The notes under the pieces were generated by a model. That model made no database searches, was not told where the DNA came from, and worked only from the letters and a program-made list of their open reading frames with translations. A DNA stretch of 64,000 nt from an uncultured Clostridia bacterium (GTDB lineage: Bacteria; Bacillota; Clostridia; TANB77; CAG-508). The position numbers and the translations under genes are program-made. Below, piece by piece: positions 645 through 54,973 of this stretch (its first letter is position 1; every line of letters begins with the position of its first letter). Where the stretch lies: assembly GCA_934119935.1 (NCBI GenBank), contig CAKOSX010000001.1:332299-396298 (forward strand). Direction: 5' to 3'.

Positions 645-1880
645 ATGGCTAGAGTTGTTGGCATAATCGCAGAGTATAACCCATTTCATAATGGACATTA
701 CTATCACTTACAAAAAGCAAAGCAAGAAGCTAATGCCGATTATTGCATTGCTGTAATATCTGGTAATTTCACTCAGAGAGGGGATGTGTCGATTGTAAAC
801 AAATGGGCGAAGGCCTATATGGCAATATGTGGTGGAGCAGACTTAGTTATTGAACTTCCAACGATATATAGTGTTTCTAGTGCAGAAAATTTTGCAAATG
901 GAGCCATAAAAATATTAGATAGCCTAAAAATAGTTGATAGCTTTGCTTTTGGTGCAGAAGCAAATGATCTTGCTACATTAAACAACATAGCAAATGTGCT
1001 TAACGAGGAACCTAAGGGATATACCAATATATTAAATCACGAACTAAAAAAAGGAATATCATACCCTGCGGCGAGAGAAAATGCGATAATGATGTATTTA
1101 AATGATATAAAGAGATATGCGAACGTAATGGGAAATCCTAATAATATACTTGCTGTTGAATATTTGAAGGCATTAAAAAATCAAAAAAGCAAGCTAACAC
1201 CGATAATGATAAAAAGACAAAAGGTGTATTATAATGAACATAGAATTGTTGATGGATATGCGAGTGCAACCGGGATACGAGAATTACTAAAAAATAAAGA
1301 ATATTCTGATGTTTCAAAAGTTGTTCCAAGGAGTACGTATCAAATATTGGGGCAACAGGCAAATAATGGGAGAATGATTTTAAGTCTAGAAAAATATCAA
1401 AAAGAGATAATATATGCACTAAGAAAAATGACAGTAGAGGAGATTGCAGAATTACCTGATGTATCTGAAGGATTAGAAAATTCTATAAAAAATGCTGCTA
1501 ACAATTGCAACAATTTAACAGAATTAATAAATGGAATAAAATCTAAAAGATACACGCAAACCAGAATCCAAAGAATATTAATATATGCTCTATTAGGAAT
1601 AAATAAAAGAATGATGGAAAATTCAAAAAAGATAATTCCATATACTAGGATATTGGGATTCAATTCGAAGGGAAAAATGCTTATATCCGAAATTATGAAC
1701 AAAAATCCAAAGATAAACATGATTACGTCGGTAAAAAAATATATGGATCAGAATAAAAATAAACAATTGGCAGAGATGCTCGATGTAGACATATTTGCCA
1801 CAGATGTATACACACTGGGATATGACTATGATTCAAAGGCAAATCTAGATTTTACAAACAATATGATAATTACTAATTAG
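645..1880 (+). CDS. tmcAL: tRNA(Met) cytidine acetate ligase TmcAL (YlbM/UPF0348 nucleotidyltransferase)
   Basis: 411 aa; N-terminal EYNPFHNGHYYHL HxGH nucleotidyltransferase motif; matches YlbM-family architecture. Confidence 0.8.
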   Translation: MARVVGIIAEYNPFHNGHYYHLQKAKQEANADYCIAVISGNFTQRGDVSIVNKWAKAYMAICGGADLVIELPTIYSVSSAENFANGAIKILDSLKIVDSFAFGAEANDLATLNNIANVLNEEPKGYTNILNHELKKGISYPAARENAIMMYLNDIKRYANVMGNPNNILAVEYLKALKNQKSKLTPIMIKRQKVYYNEHRIVDGYASATGIRELLKNKEYSDVSKVVPRSTYQILGQQANNGRMILSLEKYQKEIIYALRKMTVEEIAELPDVSEGLENSIKNAANNCNNLTELINGIKSKRYTQTRIQRILIYALLGINKRMMENSKKIIPYTRILGFNSKGKMLISEIMNKNPKINMITSVKKYMDQNKNKQLAEMLDVDIFATDVYTLGYDYDSKANLDFTNNMIITN

Positions 1881-6883: not shown

Positions 6884-6957
<74 letters not shown>

Positions 6958-6972
6958 TAGCAAAATAAAATA

Positions 6973-6997
6973 GAGTCTCATAAGACTCTGTTTTTTC
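6973..6997 (+). terminator. tRNA terminator
   Basis: gagtctc-ataa-gagactc hairpin plus TGTTTTTT. Confidence 0.7.
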
Positions 6998-7004
6998 GTA
7001 TAAA

Positions 7005-7085
7005 GGGAATCGAAAAGGAGGAATAGAAATTAGTCCAGTGGACTAATTTCCCGACGCGGCTCGGCGATTCCCGCTACCTGCTCCA
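7005..7085 (+). other. tRNA 3'-end mimic element, copy 1 (Gly-UCC type)
   Basis: gggaatcg-aaaaggaggaatagaaattaGTCCagtGGACtaatttcccgacgcggctcgg-CGATTCCCGCTACCTGCTCCA. The last 21 nt are identical to the 3' end of the adjacent tRNA including CCA. The 5' gggaatcg is the reverse complement of cgattccc. Confidence 0.7.
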
Positions 7086-7253
7086 AGATTGCGAACCCAT
7101 ATTGATATAGAGATATTTCAATATGGTGTTCTTTTTTTGTTAAAAGTAATAGTGCTAATAAATGTTTTTATTAGCTTTAGATAATGCATACGTATTAAAG
7201 TTATTCTAAACACAAGGGGGTACCAGGAAATTCCTGATACCTCCATTGTGTTG

Positions 7254-7568
7254 TTAATAACAACGAATATGCTCAGAGCAATTGTTGCACCCTAAAGCGC
7301 AACCAACACTTTCTTTTTGCAAAATTTCCAGACTGCATCTTTCGTTGGAAGCCTTTGATTCCTGACAGCTTCTGCAACGACATTTTTCTTTGCAGTAGCA
7401 CAGTTTACCTTCGGACAGAACCTGTTTTTTACACTGTTCTACAGCGCTTTCGGTATTACATGTGGGAAGAGAATAGTGCTGCTCGGAAATGCTGCTCTTA
7501 GGTGTTTTTTCCGGATTTTTCCGGGTTCCTACCTGTTGAACTTTGTTACGTTTTTTGTGCATAGACAT
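7254..7568 (-). CDS. Cys-rich small protein (104 aa) in GC-rich cassette
   Basis: Good RBS aaggagg; motifs CYCKEKCRCRSC and GCALGCNNC; locally high GC. Confidence 0.5.
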   Translation of the reverse strand: MSMHKKRNKVQQVGTRKNPEKTPKSSISEQHYSLPTCNTESAVEQCKKQVLSEGKLCYCKEKCRCRSCQESKASNERCSLEILQKESVGCALGCNNCSEHIRCY

Positions 7569-7794: not shown

Positions 7795-8256
7795 TTACTT
7801 CGCGGCGATATACATCTCCGTGAAGAGAAGGTTGCTCCGCAGCCAGACGACATAATTGTCGTCCTGCAGGAGGTGGATGCCCTTGTCGGCATCCTTTTTC
7901 AGCATATAGCTGTTGTCTGCCGTCACCCCCACATAGGGGATTTCAGAAGGAGCGTTCATATCATGCACCAAAATCACACGACCGGTGTCGTGGATCGGTT
8001 CATTGCTTACCATCTTATTCAGAAGATAGGCAAGCTTCATACCGAGATCCCCGGTGCTTAGCAGAACAGCGCTGATATAGCAACCGCCCTCGTGAACCTC
8101 GTTAGGTGCGTACCGCATATAGCGTGCACGTTTTCCAAACACTTCAAGGACTTCAGCTGCATTGTCTGCGACTTCTTCAGGAAAATTCTGAGTGAAACCC
8201 ATAATTTCCCGTTCGGGGCAAATGTCTGCTTTTGCAGACGTTTTGAATTTTGTCAT
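7795..8256 (-). CDS. Hypothetical protein (153 aa) in GC-rich cassette
   Basis: Intact ORF, GC about 50% versus about 30% background. Confidence 0.5.
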   Translation of the reverse strand: MTKFKTSAKADICPEREIMGFTQNFPEEVADNAAEVLEVFGKRARYMRYAPNEVHEGGCYISAVLLSTGDLGMKLAYLLNKMVSNEPIHDTGRVILVHDMNAPSEIPYVGVTADNSYMLKKDADKGIHLLQDDNYVVWLRSNLLFTEMYIAAK

Positions 8257-8462
8257 TTTTTTTGACCTCCTTGTGGTCTTTTTTGTGTGTTATACGGAGC
8301 AAACTTCTTGAAATAATAATGTTTGCAAATTTTAGTATACCACACTTTACATAAAATGTAAAGCACTGCAAATAAAAACGGTGTATAATGGTAAATTTGT
8401 ATGTTTAAATAAAAAATACTTGCAAAAATTTATTAAAGTGATAAAATATAGACATGAAAAAT

Positions 8463-8536
8463 GCAGATGTAGTTTAGTGGTAGAACTTTGCCTTCCCAAG
8501 GCAATAGTGTGGGTTCGATTCCCATCATCTGCTCCA
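8463..8536 (+). tRNA. tRNA-Gly (anticodon CCC), CCA encoded
   Basis: Acceptor GCAGATG/CATCTGC; anticodon stem TTGCC/GGCAA; loop TTCCCAA. Confidence 0.9.
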
Positions 8537-8590
8537 GAATGAAAAGAGAAATTGGAGTTTTATATAACTTTAATTTTTTTCTTTTTATAA

Positions 8591-8671
8591 GGGAATCGAA
8601 AAGGAGGAGCAGAAATTAGTCCTGAGGACTAATTTCCCGACGCGGCTCGACGATTCCCATCATCTGCTCCA
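8591..8671 (+). other. tRNA 3'-end mimic element, copy 2 (Gly-CCC type)
   Basis: Same core as copy 1, but the 3' part is cgattcccATCATCTGCTCCA, matching the 3' end of tRNA-Gly(CCC) rather than Gly(UCC). Confidence 0.7.
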
Positions 8672-8726
8672 TAAAGTAAAAGAAAAATTAGAGCTTTTTT
8701 AAAACTTTAATTTTTTATTTTTTTGA

Positions 8727-8795
8727 GGCAATCGAAAAGGTGTAATAGAAATTAGTTTGGAAAATTAAATTTTCGATGTGGCTTGGCGATTTTCA
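8727..8795 (+). other. Degenerate third copy of tRNA 3'-end mimic element
   Basis: ggcaatcgaaaaggtgtaatagaaattagtttgg...gatgtggcttggcgattttcat; recognisably the same core but decayed. Confidence 0.5.
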
Positions 8796-8813
8796 TAGCA
8801 TATTCTATAATAT

Positions 8814-8842
8814 TTGACATTTTATGTAAAGCGTAGTATAAT
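8814..8842 (+). promoter_or_regulatory. Consensus sigma-A promoter of GC-rich cassette
   Basis: TTGACA-17 nt-TATAAT exactly. Confidence 0.65.
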
Positions 8843-8919
8843 ATAAATAGTCCGAAAATTTTTTTTGTGAAACTCGGTAAGTCCTCCGAATTGAGAGGCA
8901 CGAGAAAAGGAGAGAGTAT

Positions 8920-9328
8920 TATGGCACACATTCTCGTAAACGCGTTCGCATTATCGATGCTTCCTCTGGAGGCTATGAATTTTGTTCGGGTGAAGAAGAT
9001 CAACCCGAATGAAGTTCCGGCAGACGTTGAATCTGCCATCGGCCATACGGACACTGCGAAAGTGGTGTCTGGCATCTTGGGTTTCGAGGTGAAGCCTAAC
9101 CGGGTTAGCATTAAGCTGACCGAGAGCGACGTCTTGTACGTTGCTCAGTACACTGGGCCGAGGCTGCCGGAGGGTGCAACCACCTTGCCGGAAGGCGCAA
9201 GCCTCGAGTTCTTCGAGGTCACCTTCCACAAGGAAGGATGCCGTGGATGCCATGGCTACGATTCTGGCACTTGCCAGAATTGTATCTTCAGCTTCTGGCT
9301 GAGCGGCGCTCCCATCATGGAGCGATAA
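8920..9328 (+). CDS. Hypothetical protein (136 aa) in high-GC (about 55%) cassette; possibly DUF1874-like
   Basis: ATG at 8920 with RBS aaaaggagagag preferred over the GTG at 8867 used by the ORF track; starts MAHILVNAFALSMLPLE. Confidence 0.55.
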
Positions 9329-9337
9329 TATCTCCTA

Positions 9338-9399
9338 AACACTCTGTCTCTTGTTGCAATGCAACTTGAGGCAGGGTGTTTTTTTATTCTGTAAAGAGT
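9338..9399 (+). terminator. Strong rho-independent terminator of GC-rich cassette
   Basis: 11-bp stem cactctgtctc/gaggcagggtg (G-U wobbles only on + strand RNA) with inner gttgca/tgcaac hairpin, then TTTTTTT. Confidence 0.7.
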
Positions 9400-9467
9400 T
9401 CTTAAAAACTATTGAAAATTTCCCCATATTTTGATATAAATATAAAAAACAAACAGGGGAGAATATC

Positions 9468-10991
9468 GTGAAAAAATTAATTCAAATTTTAGGAATAGTC
9501 GTACTAGCAATAGTAGTAATTTTAAATATAGTTTATACGGCGGACATGAATTCTGGAGAGCAAATCTCAATCAATTTTAACAGCTTTATTTATATAATAG
9601 GACTTATTATAACGGCAATTTTAATTTATTTTATAACTGAAGTAATAAATAAACATTTATATAATGGAATAAATGAAGAGAAAAAACGCAAATTGCGCAA
9701 ATGGATGGTCGCAATTGCTATTGTTTTATATTTGATTTTTAATGTAGTGTGGCTAATTTTCGTAAGACCAGGAATAGTAGCAGATTCTATACATGTTTTA
9801 AATTTGGCACAAACATATTACGAGAACAATCCAGATAGATACTTACCAAATTTGACATATGCAGGAATACCACTAATTCAATATATGCAAGCGTATCCAC
9901 ACCAAATTACGTTGGCATTTGTTTATAACATGTTATTTAGTATATTACATTGTGACCTGATAATTTTACCAAGAATATTTAATGTATTCTTTAATTTGTT
10001 AATTATTTTGGCATTATATAAAATAACAAAACAATTAGCGAAAAATTATAAAACGAATAATACGAGAATGTTTATATTAATTCTAACATTCTTTACAATA
10101 CCAATGCTTGCAACATTTATGTATGGGGATATTCCAGCGCTTTCATTAAGTTTGTTTTCTGTATATTTTATGATGAAATTCACAGATACAAAACAGGTTA
10201 GATATGGAGTTTTTGCTTCAATTCTTACGATGATAGCATATTTGATGAGAATGAATACGCTAATATTCGTAATTGCAACTGTAATTTATTTGGTATTAAA
10301 TATATTCAAAGACTTTAAAGCAAAAGCTGTAAAAGAAAAGTTAATAAATGTTGCTGTAATTGCAATGTTTTTAGTATTAACATTTGTACCATCATCACTT
10401 GTAAAAACATATTATTTTAGTAAATACAACCTAGAAAAAGGCAAAACATATCCAAGTATTAGTTATATTTTAATGGCTATGGAAGAGGGACCTAGAGCAA
10501 ATGGATGGTATAATGAATCGATTGCAGAACCTGCATTAAGAAGCTTGAAAACAGGTGAGAATATTTCTGATGAATACAAAGAAAAAATAAAGGATAGATT
10601 AGAATATTTTGCAAAACACCCTGCTTACACAGTAGATTTTTACAGACAAAAGCTTACGACTACTTGGGCAGAAAGTACATATTCTACAATGTTTAACAAT
10701 GGAATAACAGAAGAGAGTAATCTAAGCTGGATAAAGAGTCCTTTAACATTCTATCAGAAAGCTTGGATAATACTAACTTTCACATTGGTGATAATAGTGC
10801 TAATTCAAAATAGAAAAAATTTAACAATAGAACTAATATTCTTGGTAACAATATTCTTAGGAGGATTTTGTTTCCATATATTATGGGAGGCAAAATCTAG
10901 GTACATAATTCCTTATATAGTAGCATTAATACCGGTCGCAAGCATTATGCTAAACATAAAACCTTTGAAAATAAAGAAGCTGAATCCTTGA
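9468..10991 (+). CDS. Polytopic membrane protein, GT-C fold glycosyltransferase-like (PMT_2/ArnT-like)
   Basis: 507 aa, about 12 TM helices with extracytoplasmic loops; adjacent to flippase gene. Confidence 0.5.
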   Translation: MKKLIQILGIVVLAIVVILNIVYTADMNSGEQISINFNSFIYIIGLIITAILIYFITEVINKHLYNGINEEKKRKLRKWMVAIAIVLYLIFNVVWLIFVRPGIVADSIHVLNLAQTYYENNPDRYLPNLTYAGIPLIQYMQAYPHQITLAFVYNMLFSILHCDLIILPRIFNVFFNLLIILALYKITKQLAKNYKTNNTRMFILILTFFTIPMLATFMYGDIPALSLSLFSVYFMMKFTDTKQVRYGVFASILTMIAYLMRMNTLIFVIATVIYLVLNIFKDFKAKAVKEKLINVAVIAMFLVLTFVPSSLVKTYYFSKYNLEKGKTYPSISYILMAMEEGPRANGWYNESIAEPALRSLKTGENISDEYKEKIKDRLEYFAKHPAYTVDFYRQKLTTTWAESTYSTMFNNGITEESNLSWIKSPLTFYQKAWIILTFTLVIIVLIQNRKNLTIELIFLVTIFLGGFCFHILWEAKSRYIIPYIVALIPVASIMLNIKPLKIKKLNP

Positions 10992-21920: not shown

Positions 21921-22622
21921 TTAATGAAGGGTTTGCAGAGCGGCATAAACGCCATCGTTAACCACGATGAAATTGCTACCACAGTTAGGGTCGTACTCCG
22001 GCATGTCCGAGGCGTCTCCACTGTACGTAACTAGGTACTTGCCATCAAGGCGATACTGAAACTGGAATGGGTTTAAAAAGTAGTCCCAGTTTCTCCAGAC
22101 ATCCTGAGTAAGTACATTGGTAACAGTTGTGGTGACGCCTGCAGATTCTGCAAGTGCGTGGAACTTGTTGCTGTAGCCAGCAGTGAATCCAAAAACGAAC
22201 TTGTGGATTCCGCTTGGGAAATAGGTTTCCAAAACCTTCAAATTGAATTCGGGGTCGTAGTAGCTTCCATAGATAATGTTCGAAAGCTTGCGATACCGTT
22301 CTTCGAAGATTTCATACCTGTCCTGAGGGTATATACTCATAAGTTTGTTCGTAACGAACTCGTTAACCTGGAATCTAATCCAAAGGTCAAGTTTAATGTC
22401 GTTAAGAGTCTGCTCATGAGCAACGTCCTGGGGAAGAAGGTCAAGGCTTGCCTTGGTCTCTCCTAGCATGTAGCCAATCTGGTAACCAAGAGCATCATTG
22501 TTGTGTTCTGAGATGAACTCAGAAGATTTCAACTTGGTACGTGACAATTCACTGATTGCATCACGAACATTATACGTTGGATGCGTTATCTGTGTCGTGC
22601 CAGACCGTTTGTCCTCTTTCAT
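21921..22622 (-). CDS. Hypothetical protein (233 aa), high-GC foreign-looking gene next to tRNA-Gly
   Basis: Intact ORF, GC about 47%. Confidence 0.5.
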   Translation of the reverse strand: MKEDKRSGTTQITHPTYNVRDAISELSRTKLKSSEFISEHNNDALGYQIGYMLGETKASLDLLPQDVAHEQTLNDIKLDLWIRFQVNEFVTNKLMSIYPQDRYEIFEERYRKLSNIIYGSYYDPEFNLKVLETYFPSGIHKFVFGFTAGYSNKFHALAESAGVTTTVTNVLTQDVWRNWDYFLNPFQFQYRLDGKYLVTYSGDASDMPEYDPNCGSNFIVVNDGVYAALQTLH

Positions 22623-22999: not shown

Positions 23000-23737
23000 T
23001 TACCGCCACTTGCGGATAGATTCCCACTTTTTGCGGTACTCCTCATGCATAATCTTTTCGCCGCTAGAGAGAGGCACACGCATGCATTTCTCGTGGTATC
23101 CAGCGTCACGGAGATACTGGACAACTTTGTAGCCTCTGGTTACGTACGTATGACCATCACGGTATACGAACACTATAACGCCGTTGCTCATGTAATAGGT
23201 ACCAAGGTTTTCCTTGGTAAAGCCATCCATGCGGAAATTAACCAGCACGGGGTATGTGATACTTTCGTAACAAGTATACTTTACCCGAAGCCCTTCCATC
23301 GGAATCATGAGACTTTTTCTCATAACGACGGGACTCAAGGCTCCGATATGGTGTTCGTTGCAGAACTTTTCACATTCTGCCGAGAAGTTTTCTTCAGGAG
23401 TTTTTTTAGCCTTTTCCTGAAGATATTTCCAACGTTTTGCTTCACGCTTCGGACAATCCGAGGCAGAGAAGGGAACATAGAAATTAGCCTCTTTGAACGA
23501 ATTTTCCACGAGAGTAGCAATAGCCCGAGTTGTGTACGGAGCTACATAGTACTTGCTTTGGTGGATAAAACCTATAACCGTTGAGTTACTTACTGCGTAA
23601 CAGCCGTTGAATTTTTGTACAAAGAAATCCACGCTGAGTGTTACCTCATGCTTGGTGTCCTGGAAAACTGCTATCATTCCATGTGTGACACGGAATGAAT
23701 CGTGGATGAGATCGCCCAATGAATAAGTATTTGTCAT
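23000..23737 (-). CDS. Hypothetical protein (245 aa), high-GC
   Basis: Longer and more protein-like than the overlapping + strand ORF 22976..23584. Confidence 0.45.
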   Translation of the reverse strand: MTNTYSLGDLIHDSFRVTHGMIAVFQDTKHEVTLSVDFFVQKFNGCYAVSNSTVIGFIHQSKYYVAPYTTRAIATLVENSFKEANFYVPFSASDCPKREAKRWKYLQEKAKKTPEENFSAECEKFCNEHHIGALSPVVMRKSLMIPMEGLRVKYTCYESITYPVLVNFRMDGFTKENLGTYYMSNGVIVFVYRDGHTYVTRGYKVVQYLRDAGYHEKCMRVPLSSGEKIMHEEYRKKWESIRKWR

Positions 23738-29145: not shown

Positions 29146-29460
29146 ATGAGTGAAGTAAATTTAACAAGTAAAAACTATAGTGAAGAAGTAGAAAAAACTA
29201 CTATTCCAGTACTTATAGACTTTTGGGCTACTTGGTGCGGACCATGTAGAGCGATGATGCCGGTAGTAGCAAAAATTGCAGACGAAAATGAAGGAAAGAT
29301 AAAAGTATGCAAAGTAAATGTAGATGAAGAGCCAGATTTAGCAGAAAAATTTGGAGTAATGAGCATACCAACATTTGTTGCAATAAAAAATGGTGAAGTA
29401 CTTGGAACAAGCATAGGAGTACAAGACAAAGAAGAAATATTGAAAATGTTTGATAAATAA
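29146..29460 (+). CDS. trxA: Thioredoxin
   Basis: WCGPC active site, 104 aa. Confidence 0.9.
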   Translation: MSEVNLTSKNYSEEVEKTTIPVLIDFWATWCGPCRAMMPVVAKIADENEGKIKVCKVNVDEEPDLAEKFGVMSIPTFVAIKNGEVLGTSIGVQDKEEILKMFDK

Positions 29461-29540
29461 AAATATAAAAATTAGATTTCAATGTGAGATCTAATTGTTT
29501 TTACAAATAAAGTATACATAAAATAAAAGAGCTAAAAACG

Positions 29541-29569
29541 TTGAAATATATGGAAAAATGTAGTATAAT
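29541..29569 (+). promoter_or_regulatory. Consensus sigma-A promoter of GC-rich cassette
   Basis: TTGAAA-17 nt-TATAAT. Confidence 0.6.
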
Positions 29570-29660
29570 TAAATAGATGGTACTTTTTTATGCCGTCCGA
29601 GATTTCGGGAGGCATGAGCCTCCGAAGTTTCGATATATTGAATATTAGGAGGCAATAAGT

Positions 29661-30686
29661 ATGAAAAACATTGAAAGAAGACGGATGAATATGGTGAAAA
29701 CAAGCACCGGAGAAAGGGGAAGCCTGTGGCTTGAAAAACTAGCCATTCCTGAAACGGTAAAAGTTACTGTGAACGGTGAAAAAGTTGTTCCGGCAGGTTT
29801 CGATATTTACGGTCAGCCTTTTTTTACCAAAGAGCAGTGCAAGATGTTCGAGTTTAAGGAAGAAGAACTCAGAAGAGAAAAGAACGATAACAACTTTGAA
29901 TTGAAAGCAGAGGTCACGTACGAAGAAAGAATGTTTGACGTACCGAGAACCAACTTTGATTCGGTTAATGGCATTCAGGAATCTCTCCAGAGTTTGGATA
30001 CCTTAAGTAAGATGATCAAAAACCGGAAGATCTACCACAAAGCATATCCGAAGATTATGCTGAACGAGTTCGTTTTGTTCGGTTATATAAAACTCGAATG
30101 TGCTGGTGGAGTATCTTTTACAACAGACAGGACTCAATTCACTGCGGATATTGAGATATTTCAATATTTCAAGAACCGCAACGAGCAGACCTGTATGTTT
30201 GGTCAGTCTGCTTACACCATTCCGGCACCCCATTCGGTTTGCCCGTGCTGTGGACAAACTATCACAATTCATGATGTGAAAAACAACCCTTGTGTGAAGG
30301 TGCATGGTAAAGTATATCATGAAAGGTGCTGGCAGGAGTTCAGGAAGCTTTCTGAAATCGATTTTTTCACCAGCGTGATAAGTGGTACCTATTCCTTTAC
30401 GGAATATAAGTTTGATTTCAGGGAGAAGGAAGGAAAGGAGCCTTATTATTCCGAGGCGGTGTTCCACACTGTCGACGGAGACATAAAAATCAGTCGGTAT
30501 GGTGAATTCACGGAGGTCGAATGGCTGGACAACTACAAGCCTTTTGACCTGCGTCGAGTCATGAGAGAGCTGAATAAGGGTATTGCCACTGATGGAGAAA
30601 GAAAGGTGTTCTTCATCGAGGATTGCTGGAACAATGCACATGCGTGCATTTATAAAGCAAGAAAGGCGACCACACACACTGCATAA
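29661..30686 (+). CDS. Hypothetical protein (341 aa) with CPCC...H..C zinc-ribbon-like motif, high-GC cassette
   Basis: Strong RBS taggagg; GC about 45%; no recognisable family. Confidence 0.55.
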   Translation: MKNIERRRMNMVKTSTGERGSLWLEKLAIPETVKVTVNGEKVVPAGFDIYGQPFFTKEQCKMFEFKEEELRREKNDNNFELKAEVTYEERMFDVPRTNFDSVNGIQESLQSLDTLSKMIKNRKIYHKAYPKIMLNEFVLFGYIKLECAGGVSFTTDRTQFTADIEIFQYFKNRNEQTCMFGQSAYTIPAPHSVCPCCGQTITIHDVKNNPCVKVHGKVYHERCWQEFRKLSEIDFFTSVISGTYSFTEYKFDFREKEGKEPYYSEAVFHTVDGDIKISRYGEFTEVEWLDNYKPFDLRRVMRELNKGIATDGERKVFFIEDCWNNAHACIYKARKATTHTA

Positions 30687-30710
30687 AATCTGACAACCAA
30701 TTCAATGTTA

Positions 30711-30750
30711 CCCCCGCCCGGGACTCGTTCCTGGGTGGGGGCTTTTTAAT
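30711..30750 (+). terminator. GC-rich rho-independent terminator
   Basis: cccccgcccggga-ctcgt-tcctgggtggggg then CTTTTT. Confidence 0.75.
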
Positions 30751-30814
30751 AAAATATAGAATATATTTATTAAGGACAACAAAAAAAGTACTAATTATAA
30801 TTAGTATCTTACTT

Positions 30815-30896
30815 TGGTGCGGATGAAGGGACTTGACGAGCCACGTCGGGAAAACCGTCCACCGGACGCTTTTCTAATCCTCCTTTTCAAGTCCAC
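30815..30896 (-). other. tRNA 3'-end mimic element, copy 4 (Leu type)
   Basis: Reverse complement: gtggacttga-aaaggaggattagaaaagcGTCCggtGGACggttttcccgacgtggctcg-TCAAGTCCCTTCATCCGCACCA. The 3' 22 nt equal the 3' end of the adjacent tRNA-Leu. The 5' ggacttga is complementary to tcaagtcc. Confidence 0.7.
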
Positions 30897-30951
30897 AAAA
30901 ATTCTCAAAGGTAACAAAAAAAGATACCAATTATAAATTAGTATCTCATTC

Positions 30952-31035
30952 TGGTGCGGATGAAGGGACTTGAACCCCCACGTCGTTGACACTGGTTCCT
31001 AAGACCAGCGCGTCTGCCAATTCCGCCACATCCGC
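30952..31035 (-). tRNA. tRNA-Leu (anticodon UAG), long variable arm, CCA encoded
   Basis: Reverse complement GCGGATGTGGCGGAATTGGCAGACGCGCTGGTCTTAGGAACCAG...CATCCGCACCA; anticodon loop CTTAGGA. Confidence 0.9.
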
Positions 31036-31170
31036 ATATGTTATTTTTAACACTTAATTATAATAGCACAATAATGTTTTGATTGTCAAGTATAAAATTA
31101 AAAAAATATAAAATTTTATAACAAAATTTTAAAAGGCTTTTAAAGAGTAAAGTTTTATGATATACTTTAT

Positions 31171-40532: not shown

Positions 40533-40657
40533 GCCAGTACCTTGTATAGCCTATAAAATTGACATATTATGTTTAGTATAGTATAATAAAAAAAGGTCAT
40601 TTCAATTGTTGTGCACGGATGTAATTACATTTTATCACAAAGAAAGGAAGGGTTTTT

Positions 40658-42031
40658 ATGAAGCAACGGAGGCAAAGAAGGAGGGCCCACACAGATTTTT
40701 ATGTAGTGGGAATACTATTTTTGCTTGTAATTGTTGGAGTGTGGGTGTTTAGCAACACACACTTCCTAAGAGGTACGTTCATTGGAGGAGTTGACTGCTC
40801 GTATTTAACAGTCGACGATGCCTTGAACAAAGTTCAACAGGAGGCAGGAGAATACACAAATAAGCTGTACTTTATCGATGAAACGACATATGATGTGAAA
40901 AACTGCGAGATTGGAGTTGTTTTTGAACGGGATAAGTTCGAGAGCGTTTTCAAGAGACAGCATGATGACAAAAATGTTAACAGAGTTTATGGAGTTAGCG
41001 ATGTAACGTCGATTAACGAAGGACAAGTCGCAATGTATCTGACAACGATTCCGGAATTGCAGCAGGCGAATATGGTGGAGCCGAAAGATGCTCACATAAC
41101 TTGGGATGGTGCAAGTTTTGGAACCGAAAAAGAAACCATTGGCAACATGATTGATTTTAACGAAGCACTGGAATTCACGCTTCAAGAGCTTAGAGCCGAT
41201 GAAAACGAAATCTATCTTTCTGATATAACTCGGTCAGTACCTAGTGTGACTGAGGGAGATCTTGAAGGAAGAGTGGCGTATCTGAATAGACTTTTGAAGA
41301 GCTGTATTAACATTACTTTAAGCGATGGATCTGTTGTGACGCTTGACTATAACACGATAAAGTCGTGGATCGGGCAAGATGAGAATGGAGACTTCTCTAT
41401 TAATGTTAATGCTGGCGTTCCGAGTTTTGTTGAAGAATTGGCTACAAAGGTCGATAAGGCAAATGCAACAATGCGTTTTAAGGCTACCAACCGGAGCAAT
41501 CTTGTTAGCGTAAAGGTTCCCAAGAGCCGTAGAGCTAAGTTAAACAAGGAAGCCGAAGCAAATCAGCTGGAAGCATTGCTGGGGTCTACCGAACCTGTGG
41601 ATTGTACTCCAATCTATGAAGGAAATTTAATTTCCGAAGCCGATTTGTCAAATCGTGTCGAAATCGATATTACAAATCAGCATGTCTGGATGTATAAAGA
41701 CAATACGCTCATTGCAGACACAGACTGCGTCACTGGCAACGAAAGTGCTGGACACAGTACGCCTACGGGAGTGTACAAGTTGATATACAAAGAAAGGGAC
41801 AGATATCTCAGAGGCAAAAACGATGACGGAACTGACTATTGTTCGTTTGTGAAATACTGGATGCCGTTCAACGGAGGAGTCGGATTGCACGACGCATCGT
41901 GGCGCAGTAAATTTGGCGGAGACATTTACAAAAACGGTGGTTCACACGGTTGCGTAAATCTTCCCAGAAGCGTTGCGGAAACGATATATAACAACATCGA
42001 CAGTTCCTATTTCATAATCGTGTACAAGTAA
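40658..42031 (+). CDS. L,D-transpeptidase (YkuD domain) with N-terminal anchor and VanW-like region
   Basis: C-terminal HDASWRS...GGSHGCVNL catalytic His/Cys motif; locally elevated GC. Confidence 0.75.
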   Translation: MKQRRQRRRAHTDFYVVGILFLLVIVGVWVFSNTHFLRGTFIGGVDCSYLTVDDALNKVQQEAGEYTNKLYFIDETTYDVKNCEIGVVFERDKFESVFKRQHDDKNVNRVYGVSDVTSINEGQVAMYLTTIPELQQANMVEPKDAHITWDGASFGTEKETIGNMIDFNEALEFTLQELRADENEIYLSDITRSVPSVTEGDLEGRVAYLNRLLKSCINITLSDGSVVTLDYNTIKSWIGQDENGDFSINVNAGVPSFVEELATKVDKANATMRFKATNRSNLVSVKVPKSRRAKLNKEAEANQLEALLGSTEPVDCTPIYEGNLISEADLSNRVEIDITNQHVWMYKDNTLIADTDCVTGNESAGHSTPTGVYKLIYKERDRYLRGKNDDGTDYCSFVKYWMPFNGGVGLHDASWRSKFGGDIYKNGGSHGCVNLPRSVAETIYNNIDSSYFIIVYK

Positions 42032-54795: not shown

Positions 54796-54973
54796 CTTAT
54801 GTTATTACCTCTATATTAATTTCTTAAATTTATTATAAGCACATTAAAAGACTATGTCAATAATAAAATTTGATGCTGAAATGGTATTTAAGATGAAAAA
54901 ATTACGAATATTTCTTGAAAATTGTACTATTTTATAGTATTCTATAGATGAAAAAAAGAAAGGGGGATTTTAT

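Follow-up and report, generated by a model that had tools for sequence, protein, structure and literature searches.

A chromosomal cassette for a putative DUF1874-family ring nuclease, with a hairpin-rich message and an exchangeable coding sequence, in uncultured gut Clostridia

The stretch of DNA analysed here (hereafter the window) comprises 64,000 nucleotides from an uncultured Clostridia bacterium (assembly GCA_934119935.1, contig CAKOSX010000001.1, positions 332,299 to 396,298), and carries, at positions 8814-9399, a GC-rich single-gene cassette beside a tRNA-Gly(CCC) gene. We hold it probable, at about 0.65, that this cassette is an independently transcribed unit for a DUF1874 ring nuclease acting on cyclic tetra-adenylate (cA4), that it has long been resident at its site, that its coding sequence is swapped between strains, and that its message is rich in hairpins. 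The DUF1874 family includes the viral anti-CRISPR protein AcrIII-1, which destroys the cA4 alarm signal of type III CRISPR, as well as its cellular counterpart Crn2. The family is thus known, and the unusual parts are the structured GC-rich message, a dedicated hairpin in the 5' untranslated region (5'UTR), a C-terminal four-cysteine (Cys4) tail, and sibling modules that are likewise linked to tRNA genes.

The open reading frame (ORF) on the forward strand extends from an ATG at 8921 to a TAA at 9326-9328 and encodes 135 amino acids (136 codons with the stop). Its product matches Pfam PF08960 (STIV_B116-like) with 33.7 bits against a cut-off of 26 and PHROG 5063 at 1e-16, and PADLOC calls it Csx16. 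Searches of the PDB with phmmer returned 2x4i (SIRV1 ORF114/gp29; 2e-7), 2j6b (4e-7), 6scf and 2j85, a set that includes the complex of SIRV1 gp29 H47A with cA4 (6scf), AFV3-109 and STIV B116. An AlphaFold2 (AF2) model built from 33 relatives reached a predicted local distance difference test score (pLDDT) of 86.9, and Foldseek placed 6scf first (E 4e-9), followed by 2x4i, 2j85 and 2j6b and then by the Crn2 domain of Csx1-Crn2 (8y7f/8y7g), all with a probability of 1.00; target-normalised TM-scores to the four single-domain family structures were 0.66-0.77. An earlier sequence-only reading of the window had ventured a resemblance to the DUF1874/STIV B116-like family and had proposed structure prediction as a check; the profile, PDB and Foldseek matches now confirm the family and the DUF1874 fold. 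The same reading saw no obvious function in the product, which is too weak a statement, since the catalytic residues are retained and the protein shares 48% identity (E 2e-19) with a validated AcrIII-1, a DUF1874 protein encoded by Thermoanaerobacterium phage THSA-485A. In experiments, the phage protein eliminated type III immunity that depends on cA4, though not that which depends on cA6, and His47 of SIRV1 gp29 acts as general acid (Athukoralage et al., bioRxiv 10.1101/778746).

In the phmmer alignments to the PDB entries, H42, R81 and E84 of the product correspond to H47, R85 and E88, with the query residues IGH-T-D-T-A lying over the catalytic His47 position and RLPEG over RLEEG; the His42 codon (9044..9046, forward strand) aligns to the H47A position in 6scf. 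The His, Arg and Glu are near-invariant, both among the 33 aligned relatives and in 114-115 of the 120 closest homologues, and the IGHxxTA motif is kept in 114 of these 120. The family search comprised more than 500 sequence clusters, and one rare member, P0077, lacks the catalytic His that the window protein retains. From its sequence, the protein is classed as a homologue of the DUF1874 ring nucleases that carries a new extension at its C terminus, and the strength of the homology makes cA4 ring-nuclease activity quite probable. The extension lies in the last ~35 residues and holds C107, C110, C118 and C121 (CRGC-x7-CQNC; codons 9239..9283, forward strand, placed by the family alignment). 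This CxxC..CxxC tail, which may serve as a zinc knuckle, occurs in 92 of the 120 closest homologues; AF2 confidence over it is low (pLDDT 59-78), the PDB relatives stop short of it, and the characterised AcrIII-1/Crn2 proteins do not have it.

A different role for the same fold has to be weighed here, namely that the protein is no cA4 ring nuclease in vivo and instead binds DNA or RNA, or inhibits another protein, with the Cys4 tail providing its real activity. The prevalence of the tail among homologues, and its lack in characterised enzymes, would fit such a role, as would the lack of CRISPR or CARF genes nearby: no cas10, CARF or SAVED gene was found within +/-10 kb at any locus looked at, the search being confined to these flanks, and no cas, CARF or SAVED gene within +/-6-10 kb of loci of the window type or of locus L023. 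Furthermore, SIRV2 gp37, a DUF1874 protein, is not an anti-CRISPR in native infection and has a second target, a host lysine methyltransferase which it natively inhibits (bioRxiv 10.1101/2023.01.10.523387); therefore, family membership alone does not fix the biological role. Nevertheless, we regard this explanation as unlikely, with the catalytic His and the R..E loop conserved under purifying selection, with 48% identity to a validated AcrIII-1, and with P0077 illustrating that loss of the His is tolerated where function changes, while the window protein has kept it.

The anatomy of the cassette is that of a self-contained transcription unit. Its sigma-70-type promoter, TTGACA-17-TATAAT at 8814..8842 on the forward strand, agrees with the consensus at 12 of 12 positions and begins 13 nt past the second of two repeats that follow tRNA-Gly(CCC), so that both the perfect promoter and the placement immediately after these tRNA mimics, as given in the sequence-only reading, are correct. 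The -35 half of the promoter is contained in a near-palindrome, TTGACAT-N3-ATGTAAA (8814-8830). The 5'UTR (8849..8920), whose start is inferred from the -10 box and not mapped, contains a strong Shine-Dalgarno sequence, AAAAGGAGAG, with its GGAG core at 8909-8912 and a spacing of 8 nt. Downstream of the gene, the long GC-rich terminator that had been noted (9338..9388, forward strand) was seen in sequence and fold as an interrupted stem of 14+5 bp (~9338-9382) followed by a run of seven T. The gene itself, which had been put at 8920..9328 with about 55% GC against a background of about 30%, occupies 8921-9328 and has 54.2% GC (GC1 0.54, GC2 0.42 and GC3 0.66 at the first, second and third codon positions), compared with 32.3% for the whole window. 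The neighbours are tRNA-Gly, xerD, PMT_2, Polysacc_synt and murB, of which xerD, PMT_2 and Polysacc_synt have 28% GC and a GC3 of 0.15-0.25, and the gene content of the window is of the Clostridia type (SpoIIM, XerD, MurB, spore protease). A fit of the codon usage to the adjoining tRNA-Gly(CCC) was considered and rejected, as GGG accounts for 1 of 11 Gly codons and GGC dominates.

The exact TTGACA-17-TATAAT sequence occurs three times in the window, against 0.02 occurrences expected by chance. The second copy, at 40559, precedes a 457-aa gene for a YkuD L,D-transpeptidase, and the third (54832-54860, reverse strand) has a spacer unrelated to that of the cassette promoter. A promoter motif, TTGACAnnTTATGTAAA-N7-TAtAaT, is also found upstream of homologues in metagenome-assembled genomes (MAGs) from goat, sheep, rabbit and human, as well as upstream of the sibling GC-rich genes of the window, and the related form TTGACAnnTTATGT..TAGTATAAT stands upstream of the cassette, of a 153-aa gene, of a 245-aa gene and of the YkuD gene, which has 43% GC.

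Comparison with related genomes shows that the cassette has long resided upstream of PMT_2 across several related lineages, with its coding part swapped between strains. An identical protein is present on many human-gut metagenome contigs, and at genome level the matches are to 'Clostridium sp. CAG:245' and to MAGs of uncultured Clostridia. The cassette lies directly upstream of the same PMT_2 glycosyltransferase gene in all close relatives found (loci L001-L012 and L019). The other side varies: xerD and tRNA-Gly in loci of the window type, an extra serine-recombinase element in L003/L006, another gene order in L001/L004, and tRNA-Leu in CAG:245 (L019). The DUF1874 protein of the window has identities of 100%, 84% and 61% to its counterparts, the latter two being those of L009 and L012, in which the proteins on either side keep 95-99.7% identity to the window. 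At the nucleotide level, the tRNA, repeats, promoter, 5'UTR and terminator are almost invariant and the coding sequence diverges from start to stop; the 5'UTR is conserved from 8873 to the ATG across alleles whose coding sequences are only 61-84% identical, and the terminator is near-identical even between alleles with coding sequences saturated at synonymous sites.

Between the window and L001 the DUF1874 gene has a synonymous divergence (dS) of 0.14 and a ratio of non-synonymous to synonymous divergence (dN/dS) of 0 (12 synonymous and no non-synonymous changes), and the other allele pairs have a dS of 0.47-1.5, saturated for L012, with a dN/dS of 0.11-0.15. PMT_2 in the same genome pairs has a dS of only 0.10-0.16, with a dN/dS of 0.125-0.16. 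The alleles are therefore far older than their flanks, which implies horizontal allele exchange, and these dS values show that the coding sequence is replaced by recombination in the conserved non-coding ends, the promoter/5'UTR and the terminator acting as 'handles'. Fast evolution under positive selection was rejected as the cause of the divergence, dN/dS being the same as in the flanking PMT_2; the protein is under ordinary purifying selection. In more distant relatives, with PMT_2 82%, 78% and 56% identical, the cassette is missing, and L200 (82%) presents an empty site in which a mimic ending in the tRNA-Gly(CCC) 3' sequence is placed 55 nt before PMT_2 with nothing between. Among 2.9 million viral contigs no relative above 63% identity was found, the best identity in phage and plasmid records was 48%, and distant, tail-less homologues of ~100 aa are common in viruses (174 matches in the same contigs).

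The proposal that this is a horizontally acquired single-gene module is thus half right: the coding sequence moves horizontally, and the locus is long-standing. What held from it is the discrete module with foreign-looking GC, the empty site in L200 and the allele exchange seen in dS; what did not is any recent or genome-specific acquisition, with the same PMT_2 slot occupied in several species-level relatives and the gene under purifying selection. The survey of presence and absence that the sequence-only reading had called for was likewise divided, with an empty site in L200 and the cassette present in all close relatives found.

The origin of the GC excess bears on the same question. Across 13 low-GC Clostridia/Bacillota loci (the window allele, L018-L027 and L029 of the genome scan, L009 and L012; flanks 23-31% GC), the DUF1874 gene exceeds its surroundings by 16-34 GC points, for example 61.6% against 27.9% in L026 and 54% against 27% in L023. 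On 80 viral contigs, the GC content of the DUF1874 gene tracks the genome (r = 0.82, mean +7 points), and low-GC phages carry low-GC versions with a GC3 of 0.17-0.20. Since viral homologues track their own genomes, the excess belongs to this chromosomal clade and not to the whole family, and an excess intrinsic to the family through amino-acid composition was rejected on these data. The excess might be ascribed to a one-off recent transfer from a high-GC donor, with unameliorated GC and a strain-specific insertion at the tRNA; the GC3 of 0.66 against 0.15-0.25 in host genes, the adjoining tRNA and att-like repeats, the integrative element caught at the neighbouring tRNA-Gly in L003/L006, and the empty site in L200 would all agree with it. 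However, the slot is occupied in several related lineages, and alleles with dS values from 0.5 to saturation all keep a GC3 of 0.49-0.72, without decay towards the AT bias of the host; passive decay following a single transfer would hardly leave GC3 so high after such synonymous turnover. None of the 22 genome loci supplied a homologue from a high-GC genome. The L003 element, considered as a GC-rich source, was rejected because it is itself low in GC (23-34%), and the excess structure and compensatory synonymous changes described below point to selection at those sites. A recent transfer is accordingly quite unlikely in our assessment, and high GC as a simple donor signature unlikely as well.

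The message of the cassette is strongly structured. Against dinucleotide shuffles, the transcript (8849-9399) has a minimum free energy (MFE) of -242.8 kcal/mol (shuffles -177 +/- 7.5; z -8.8), the coding sequence has -189.8 kcal/mol in the sense direction (z -9.1) and -154.4 kcal/mol in the antisense direction (z -5.1), and the first 408 nt of PMT_2 have -65.3 kcal/mol (z +0.15); the sense strand folds better than the antisense strand because of its many G-U pairs. In a second control, codons were exchanged among identical amino acids, so that protein and codon usage remained fixed. With this synonymous shuffle, z was -5.5 for the window allele, -6.0 for L001, -5.6 for L009, -4.9 for L012 and -2.6 for L019, compared with a host baseline of -1.3 +/- 1.4 (28 window ORFs, one of them at -5.1). 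In 38 viral DUF1874 genes (IMG/VR loci, L040-L119) the mean was -2.9, with extremes of -8.9 (L067) and -9.9 (L118), against -1.6 in their neighbours (paired Wilcoxon p = 0.004); the 37 neighbour genes had a standard deviation of 1.65, their GC-rich members lay at or above -3.5, and two outliers were near -6.

RNAalifold applied to nine alleles yielded 18 local helices, in which 92.6% of the helix cells are paired, compared with 33-44% when partners are slid. Compensatory double changes occur at 18 pairs, against 4-8 with slid partners and 6.9 +/- 2 in shuffles, none of 500 of which reached 18. One of the helices, GGACACUGC-N4-GUGGUGUCY, lies over the codons of the catalytic segment, where a change from ACU to ACA is paired with GUG to GUU, and GAC to GAU with GUG to GUA, all four being synonymous. 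Synonymous sites thus appear to be used for maintaining sense-strand RNA hairpins, and these conserved hairpins appear enough to account for the high GC3. In AT-rich genomes, islands of high GC are often structured non-coding RNAs, and the z values of -8.8 for the transcript and -9.1 for the coding sequence, the covarying conserved hairpins and the GC island in a 30% GC genome could suggest that the region is primarily such an RNA and its ORF incidental. This is, however, extremely improbable in view of the dN/dS of 0.11-0.15 and the 12 synonymous against no non-synonymous changes relative to L001, the Pfam, PDB and fold matches that span the ORF, the strong Shine-Dalgarno sequence, the intact ORF in all alleles and the lack of any Rfam family match.

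The 5'UTR carries a conserved hairpin of 32 nt at 8873..8904 (forward strand), referred to here as motif A and recognised by descriptor scan, folding and covariation. It consists of a 4-bp stem P1 (CUCG/CGAG), a P2 hairpin and, between them, an internal loop that has RUAAGN on its 5' strand and CA or CU on its 3' strand; the Shine-Dalgarno sequence lies immediately 3' of the motif. Eight unique variants were found by the descriptor scan and a ninth (L029, with a bulged P2) was read by eye; the nine come from loci whose proteins are 52-100% identical, and the internal loop is constant throughout. Both stems covary, P1 occurring as CUCG/CGAG, UCUG/CAGA, GCUG/CAGC and UUCG/CGAG, and P2 as CCUC/GAGG, CCACAC/GUGUGG, CUAC(A)CC/GGGUAG and CCUUC/GGAGG. 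Covariation was taken from the sequences and from single-sequence folds, MAFFT having misaligned the 3' halves, and the single-sequence MFE folds contain P1 and P2 in 8 of 8 variants. Within 1.66 Mb of loci covered by the descriptor scan, the motif linked to a Shine-Dalgarno sequence is confined to the front of DUF1874 genes of the Cys-tail clade, the remaining hits being at the background rate of shuffled sequence. Rfam searches, at gathering level over the window and at permissive E-values over the cassette and the 5'UTR, returned tRNAs only and no family for the 5'UTR hairpin or the coding sequence.

A 'DUF1874 motif' of several stems and an internal loop of high conservation has been published from 5'UTRs, where it often occurs in consecutive intergenic regions; a role like that of attC sites was speculated for it (Weinberg et al. 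2017, PMC5737381). Compared by description alone, motif A would fit it in its P1, RUAAGN/CW loop and P2; however, the published element recurs in consecutive intergenic regions, and motif A is present once per locus. The published motif could equally be a second one, motif B (..CCGCCAGCCGGGAGCGGUCAAUCCCGGC..; ..ACCGCC(A/G)GCCGGGAGCGGUCAAUCCCGGC..), which is found upstream of many DUF1874 genes of ~100 aa on anaerobic-digester and viral contigs, ~30-60 nt 5' of the start codon in L044, L152, L192, L167, L144 and many others. Its hairpin loop GCGG can pair with an upstream CCGC in a pseudoknot-like manner; it is unrelated to motif A and has no Rfam match at gathering score. In L167, a twister-sister ribozyme (RF02681, 41.5 bits against a gathering threshold of 34; 1574-1645, forward strand) overlaps or lies just past the 3' end of the DUF1874 homologue.

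The published motif leads to the possibility that the unit is an integron-like gene cassette in which the tRNA mimics or the 5'UTR motif are folded single-stranded recombination sites similar to attC. Such a reading could draw on the recurrence of the published motif in consecutive intergenic regions, on the cassette-like presence and absence and allele swapping, on a tyrosine recombinase gene 2 kb upstream and on the sibling cassettes at other tRNAs. We nevertheless consider it very unlikely: motif A occurs once per locus and only before DUF1874 genes, the cassette has its own consensus promoter, unlike integron cassettes, and the many G-U pairs and better sense-strand folding favour RNA over DNA structure. 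The recombinase, the sole one there, is an ordinary XerD-type enzyme in conserved spoIIM-xerD synteny, and it is lacking in L001, which still keeps the cassette.

The cassette itself has no mobility genes, and its site is a tRNA-linked integration hot spot where att-like repeats and remnants of elements are found. Directly upstream of it lie tRNA-Gly(CCC) (8463..8536, forward strand; ARAGORN, Rfam 70.9 bits) and two tandem mimic repeats of ~130 nt (8537-8673 and 8674-8800, forward strand; repeat families D1 and D2); the last 21 nt of the tRNA recur at the end of both, exactly in the first and in degenerate form in the second. Further mimics are located at 6958-7085 and at ~30800-30880 (reverse strand) of the window and at 4850-4945 of L200. 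They follow tRNA-Gly(UCC), tRNA-Gly(CCC) (two copies) and tRNA-Leu(UAG), are 68-72% alike and share the hairpin GAAATTAGTCC-N3-GGACTAATTTC, and every one of them terminates in a copy of the last ~21 nt of its own tRNA; the lone mimic of L200 precedes PMT_2 with no tRNA adjoining. The mimics look like secondary att sites. A tRNA-like fold with an acceptor stem was not supported, since the 5' strand that could pair with the CCA end in the tRNA-Gly(CCC) copy shows no covariation in the tRNA-Gly(UCC) copy or in L009, and a match of the Rfam family BASRCI153 to a mimic (25 bits against 137) was dismissed.

A low-GC element of 4.65 kb, which encodes a large serine recombinase, an S24/LexA-like repressor and a helix-turn-helix protein, has entered tRNA-Gly(UCC) precisely at its 3' end in L003 (3364-8017) and also in L006, its insertion being accompanied by a duplication of 20 bp. 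The sequence of its left end in L003 recurs in the window at 7086-7115, just past the mimic at 6958-7085, the equivalent site being 6938-6957; this recurrence marks the tRNA-like ends as integration sites, and an older related element probably once sat at 7086-7115. The tRNA/cassette loci are rearrangement and recombination breakpoints. In CAG:245, where L019 7300-8000 was set against window 29444-31100 and 8800-9470, the cassette and PMT_2 follow the upstream side of tRNA-Leu(UAG); the last ~160 nt are all that remains of a 341-aa gene, and there is no tRNA-Leu mimic. L001/L004 share 96% identity with the window from tRNA-Gly(CCC) through Polysacc_synt, against ~78% in the remainder of the genome.

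Other genes of elevated GC (41-49%) lie beside tRNAs in the window (7795-8256, 7254-7568, 21921-22622 and 23000-23737 on the reverse strand; 29661-30686 and 40658-42031 on the forward strand), and several of them have promoters related to that of the cassette. The closest sibling is a divergent module for an orphan of 153 aa on the other side of tRNA-Gly(CCC) (gene 7795-8256, promoter 8362..8334, reverse strand; 49% GC, GC3 0.57), the promoter of which is an inverted copy of the cassette promoter (repeat I1). Its mRNA is hairpin-dense (z -5.97; synonymous-shuffle z -5.65), its alleles are 71-86% identical against 95-99.7% in the flanks, only 15 homologues were found, and its AF2 model has a pLDDT of 52.9. 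Another tRNA-Gly(UCC) has orphans of 245 and 233 aa on its two sides (z -4.4 and -3.6), and the 341-aa gene adjoins tRNA-Leu, a tRNA with a mimic of its own. No usable match for the 104-, 153-, 233-, 245- and 341-aa genes came from Pfam, PHROGs, NCBIfam or PADLOC; the 104-aa ORF is Cys-rich and has a strong ribosome-binding site.

Taken together, these features suggest the following course of events. Transcription would begin at a consensus sigma-A promoter, the -35 box of which is covered by a near-palindrome, and yield an RNA of ~540 nt. The two-stem hairpin against the ribosome-binding site would probably set translation or stability via a bound factor, and regulation may act through both the 5'UTR hairpin and the promoter palindrome. 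By homology, the 135-aa protein would dimerise, bind cA4 and cut it to linear A2>P with His42 as general acid, which would silence the CARF or SAVED effectors that cA4 activates in type III CRISPR or in similar signalling; the protein may thus counter or control immunity that depends on cA4. The module sits in a tRNA-Gly-linked integration hot spot of a low-GC gut Clostridium related to CAG:245, where deeply diverged alleles repeatedly replace the coding sequence between invariant promoter/5'UTR and terminator handles. The GC excess, mostly at third positions, builds the dense, conserved sense-strand mRNA hairpins, for which our best guess is that they may shield the message from single-strand RNases or RNA-guided targeting while the counteracted pathway is active.

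Several points weigh against this account, beginning with the second target of SIRV2 gp37, the Cys4 tail without a characterised counterpart and the lack of cas10, CARF and SAVED genes in the flanks. The alleles of L023 and L021 have little excess structure (synonymous-shuffle z -1.5 and +0.2), and shuffle z values of about -5.5 overlap the extreme tail of the controls, since two of the 37 neighbour genes and one of the 28 host ORFs reach as low. The consensus structure was derived from the same alignment that was used for the pair counts, and the sequences are related. The common promoter motif is also found upstream of two low-GC genes in L023 and may be the strong-promoter consensus of the clade, not an operator; in addition, the purposes given to the 5'UTR motif and to the hairpins of the coding sequence are pure inference.

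It is also conceivable, though doubtful, that the hairpin-dense coding sequence is adaptive as such. It would give an 'RNase-hardened' or targeting-resistant message from which a counter-signalling enzyme could be produced in the face of active RNA-guided type III surveillance or of collateral RNases switched on by cA4, with the 5'UTR hairpin as a sensor or as a switch that binds protein. On that account the cassette would be one of a wider, undescribed set of modules in low-GC gut Clostridia, comprising the tRNA-linked, GC-rich, structured 153-, 233- and 245-aa orphans with a shared promoter type, and the phage DUF1874 genes would represent a weaker form.

The cassette, read as a long-resident unit for a DUF1874 ring nuclease, can be set beside several known systems. 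With AcrIII-1 (SIRV1 gp29, 2X4I/6SCF; THSA-485A) it shares the Pfam family, the fold, the catalytic His, the cA4-clamping loop, the 48% identity to the THSA-485A protein and the form of a small stand-alone gene with strong expression signals. It differs in being chromosomal with no phage genes around and no relative above 63% on the viral contigs, in the extra tail of ~35 aa, and in a gene far richer in GC than its replicon, with a hairpin-dense mRNA and a dedicated 5'UTR motif. Crn2/Csx16 has a homologous fold, as indicated by the Foldseek match to Csx1-Crn2 and the PADLOC call, and likewise belongs to cellular genomes; the cassette, also under purifying selection, is neither in nor near a CRISPR-Cas locus in the flanks searched, and it is hypervariable through allele replacement instead of evolving with its genome. 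The gene may be either a host Crn2-like off-switch or a retained anti-CRISPR of a mobile element.

Phage morons have the same anatomy, with their own promoter, one gene, their own terminator and a deviant composition. The cassette, however, lies outside a prophage, and its composition has been long maintained and is tied to RNA structure, not a passive donor signature. From integron gene cassettes it is set apart by its own promoter, by a motif A that is not repeated between successive genes and by a sole recombinase of the XerD type. In acr-aca operons, a strong promoter is combined with an inverted-repeat operator (PMC6765145), and the consensus-strength promoter under a near-palindrome and the RNA hairpin at the ribosome-binding site are reminiscent of this arrangement; by analogy, they would suit tight repression of a potent anti-defence gene. 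Unlike these operons, the cassette contains no aca-type helix-turn-helix gene, and its palindrome may be promoter consensus only.

Ring nucleases of this family have been seen as viral genes or as rare genes of CRISPR loci, present in 7 of 38,742 genomes in one survey. The loci described here would add a large clade of them that consists of stand-alone chromosomal modules in abundant uncultured Clostridia of the human and animal gut, with a putative regulatory RNA hairpin of their own, a new Cys4 extension and mRNA structure encoded at synonymous sites. The locus also illustrates cleanly, in nature, how alleles are exchanged between non-coding 'handles' that stay fixed, and GC-rich islands in AT-rich genomes could be explained without a high-GC donor if the structure of the message protects it. 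Whether type III CRISPR signalling leads to death, arrest or survival of a cell is decided by AcrIII-1/Crn2 ring nucleases. If it is true that the structure of the message guards it from the RNases which the enzyme disarms, this would constitute a new layer in the arms race between defence and counter-defence.

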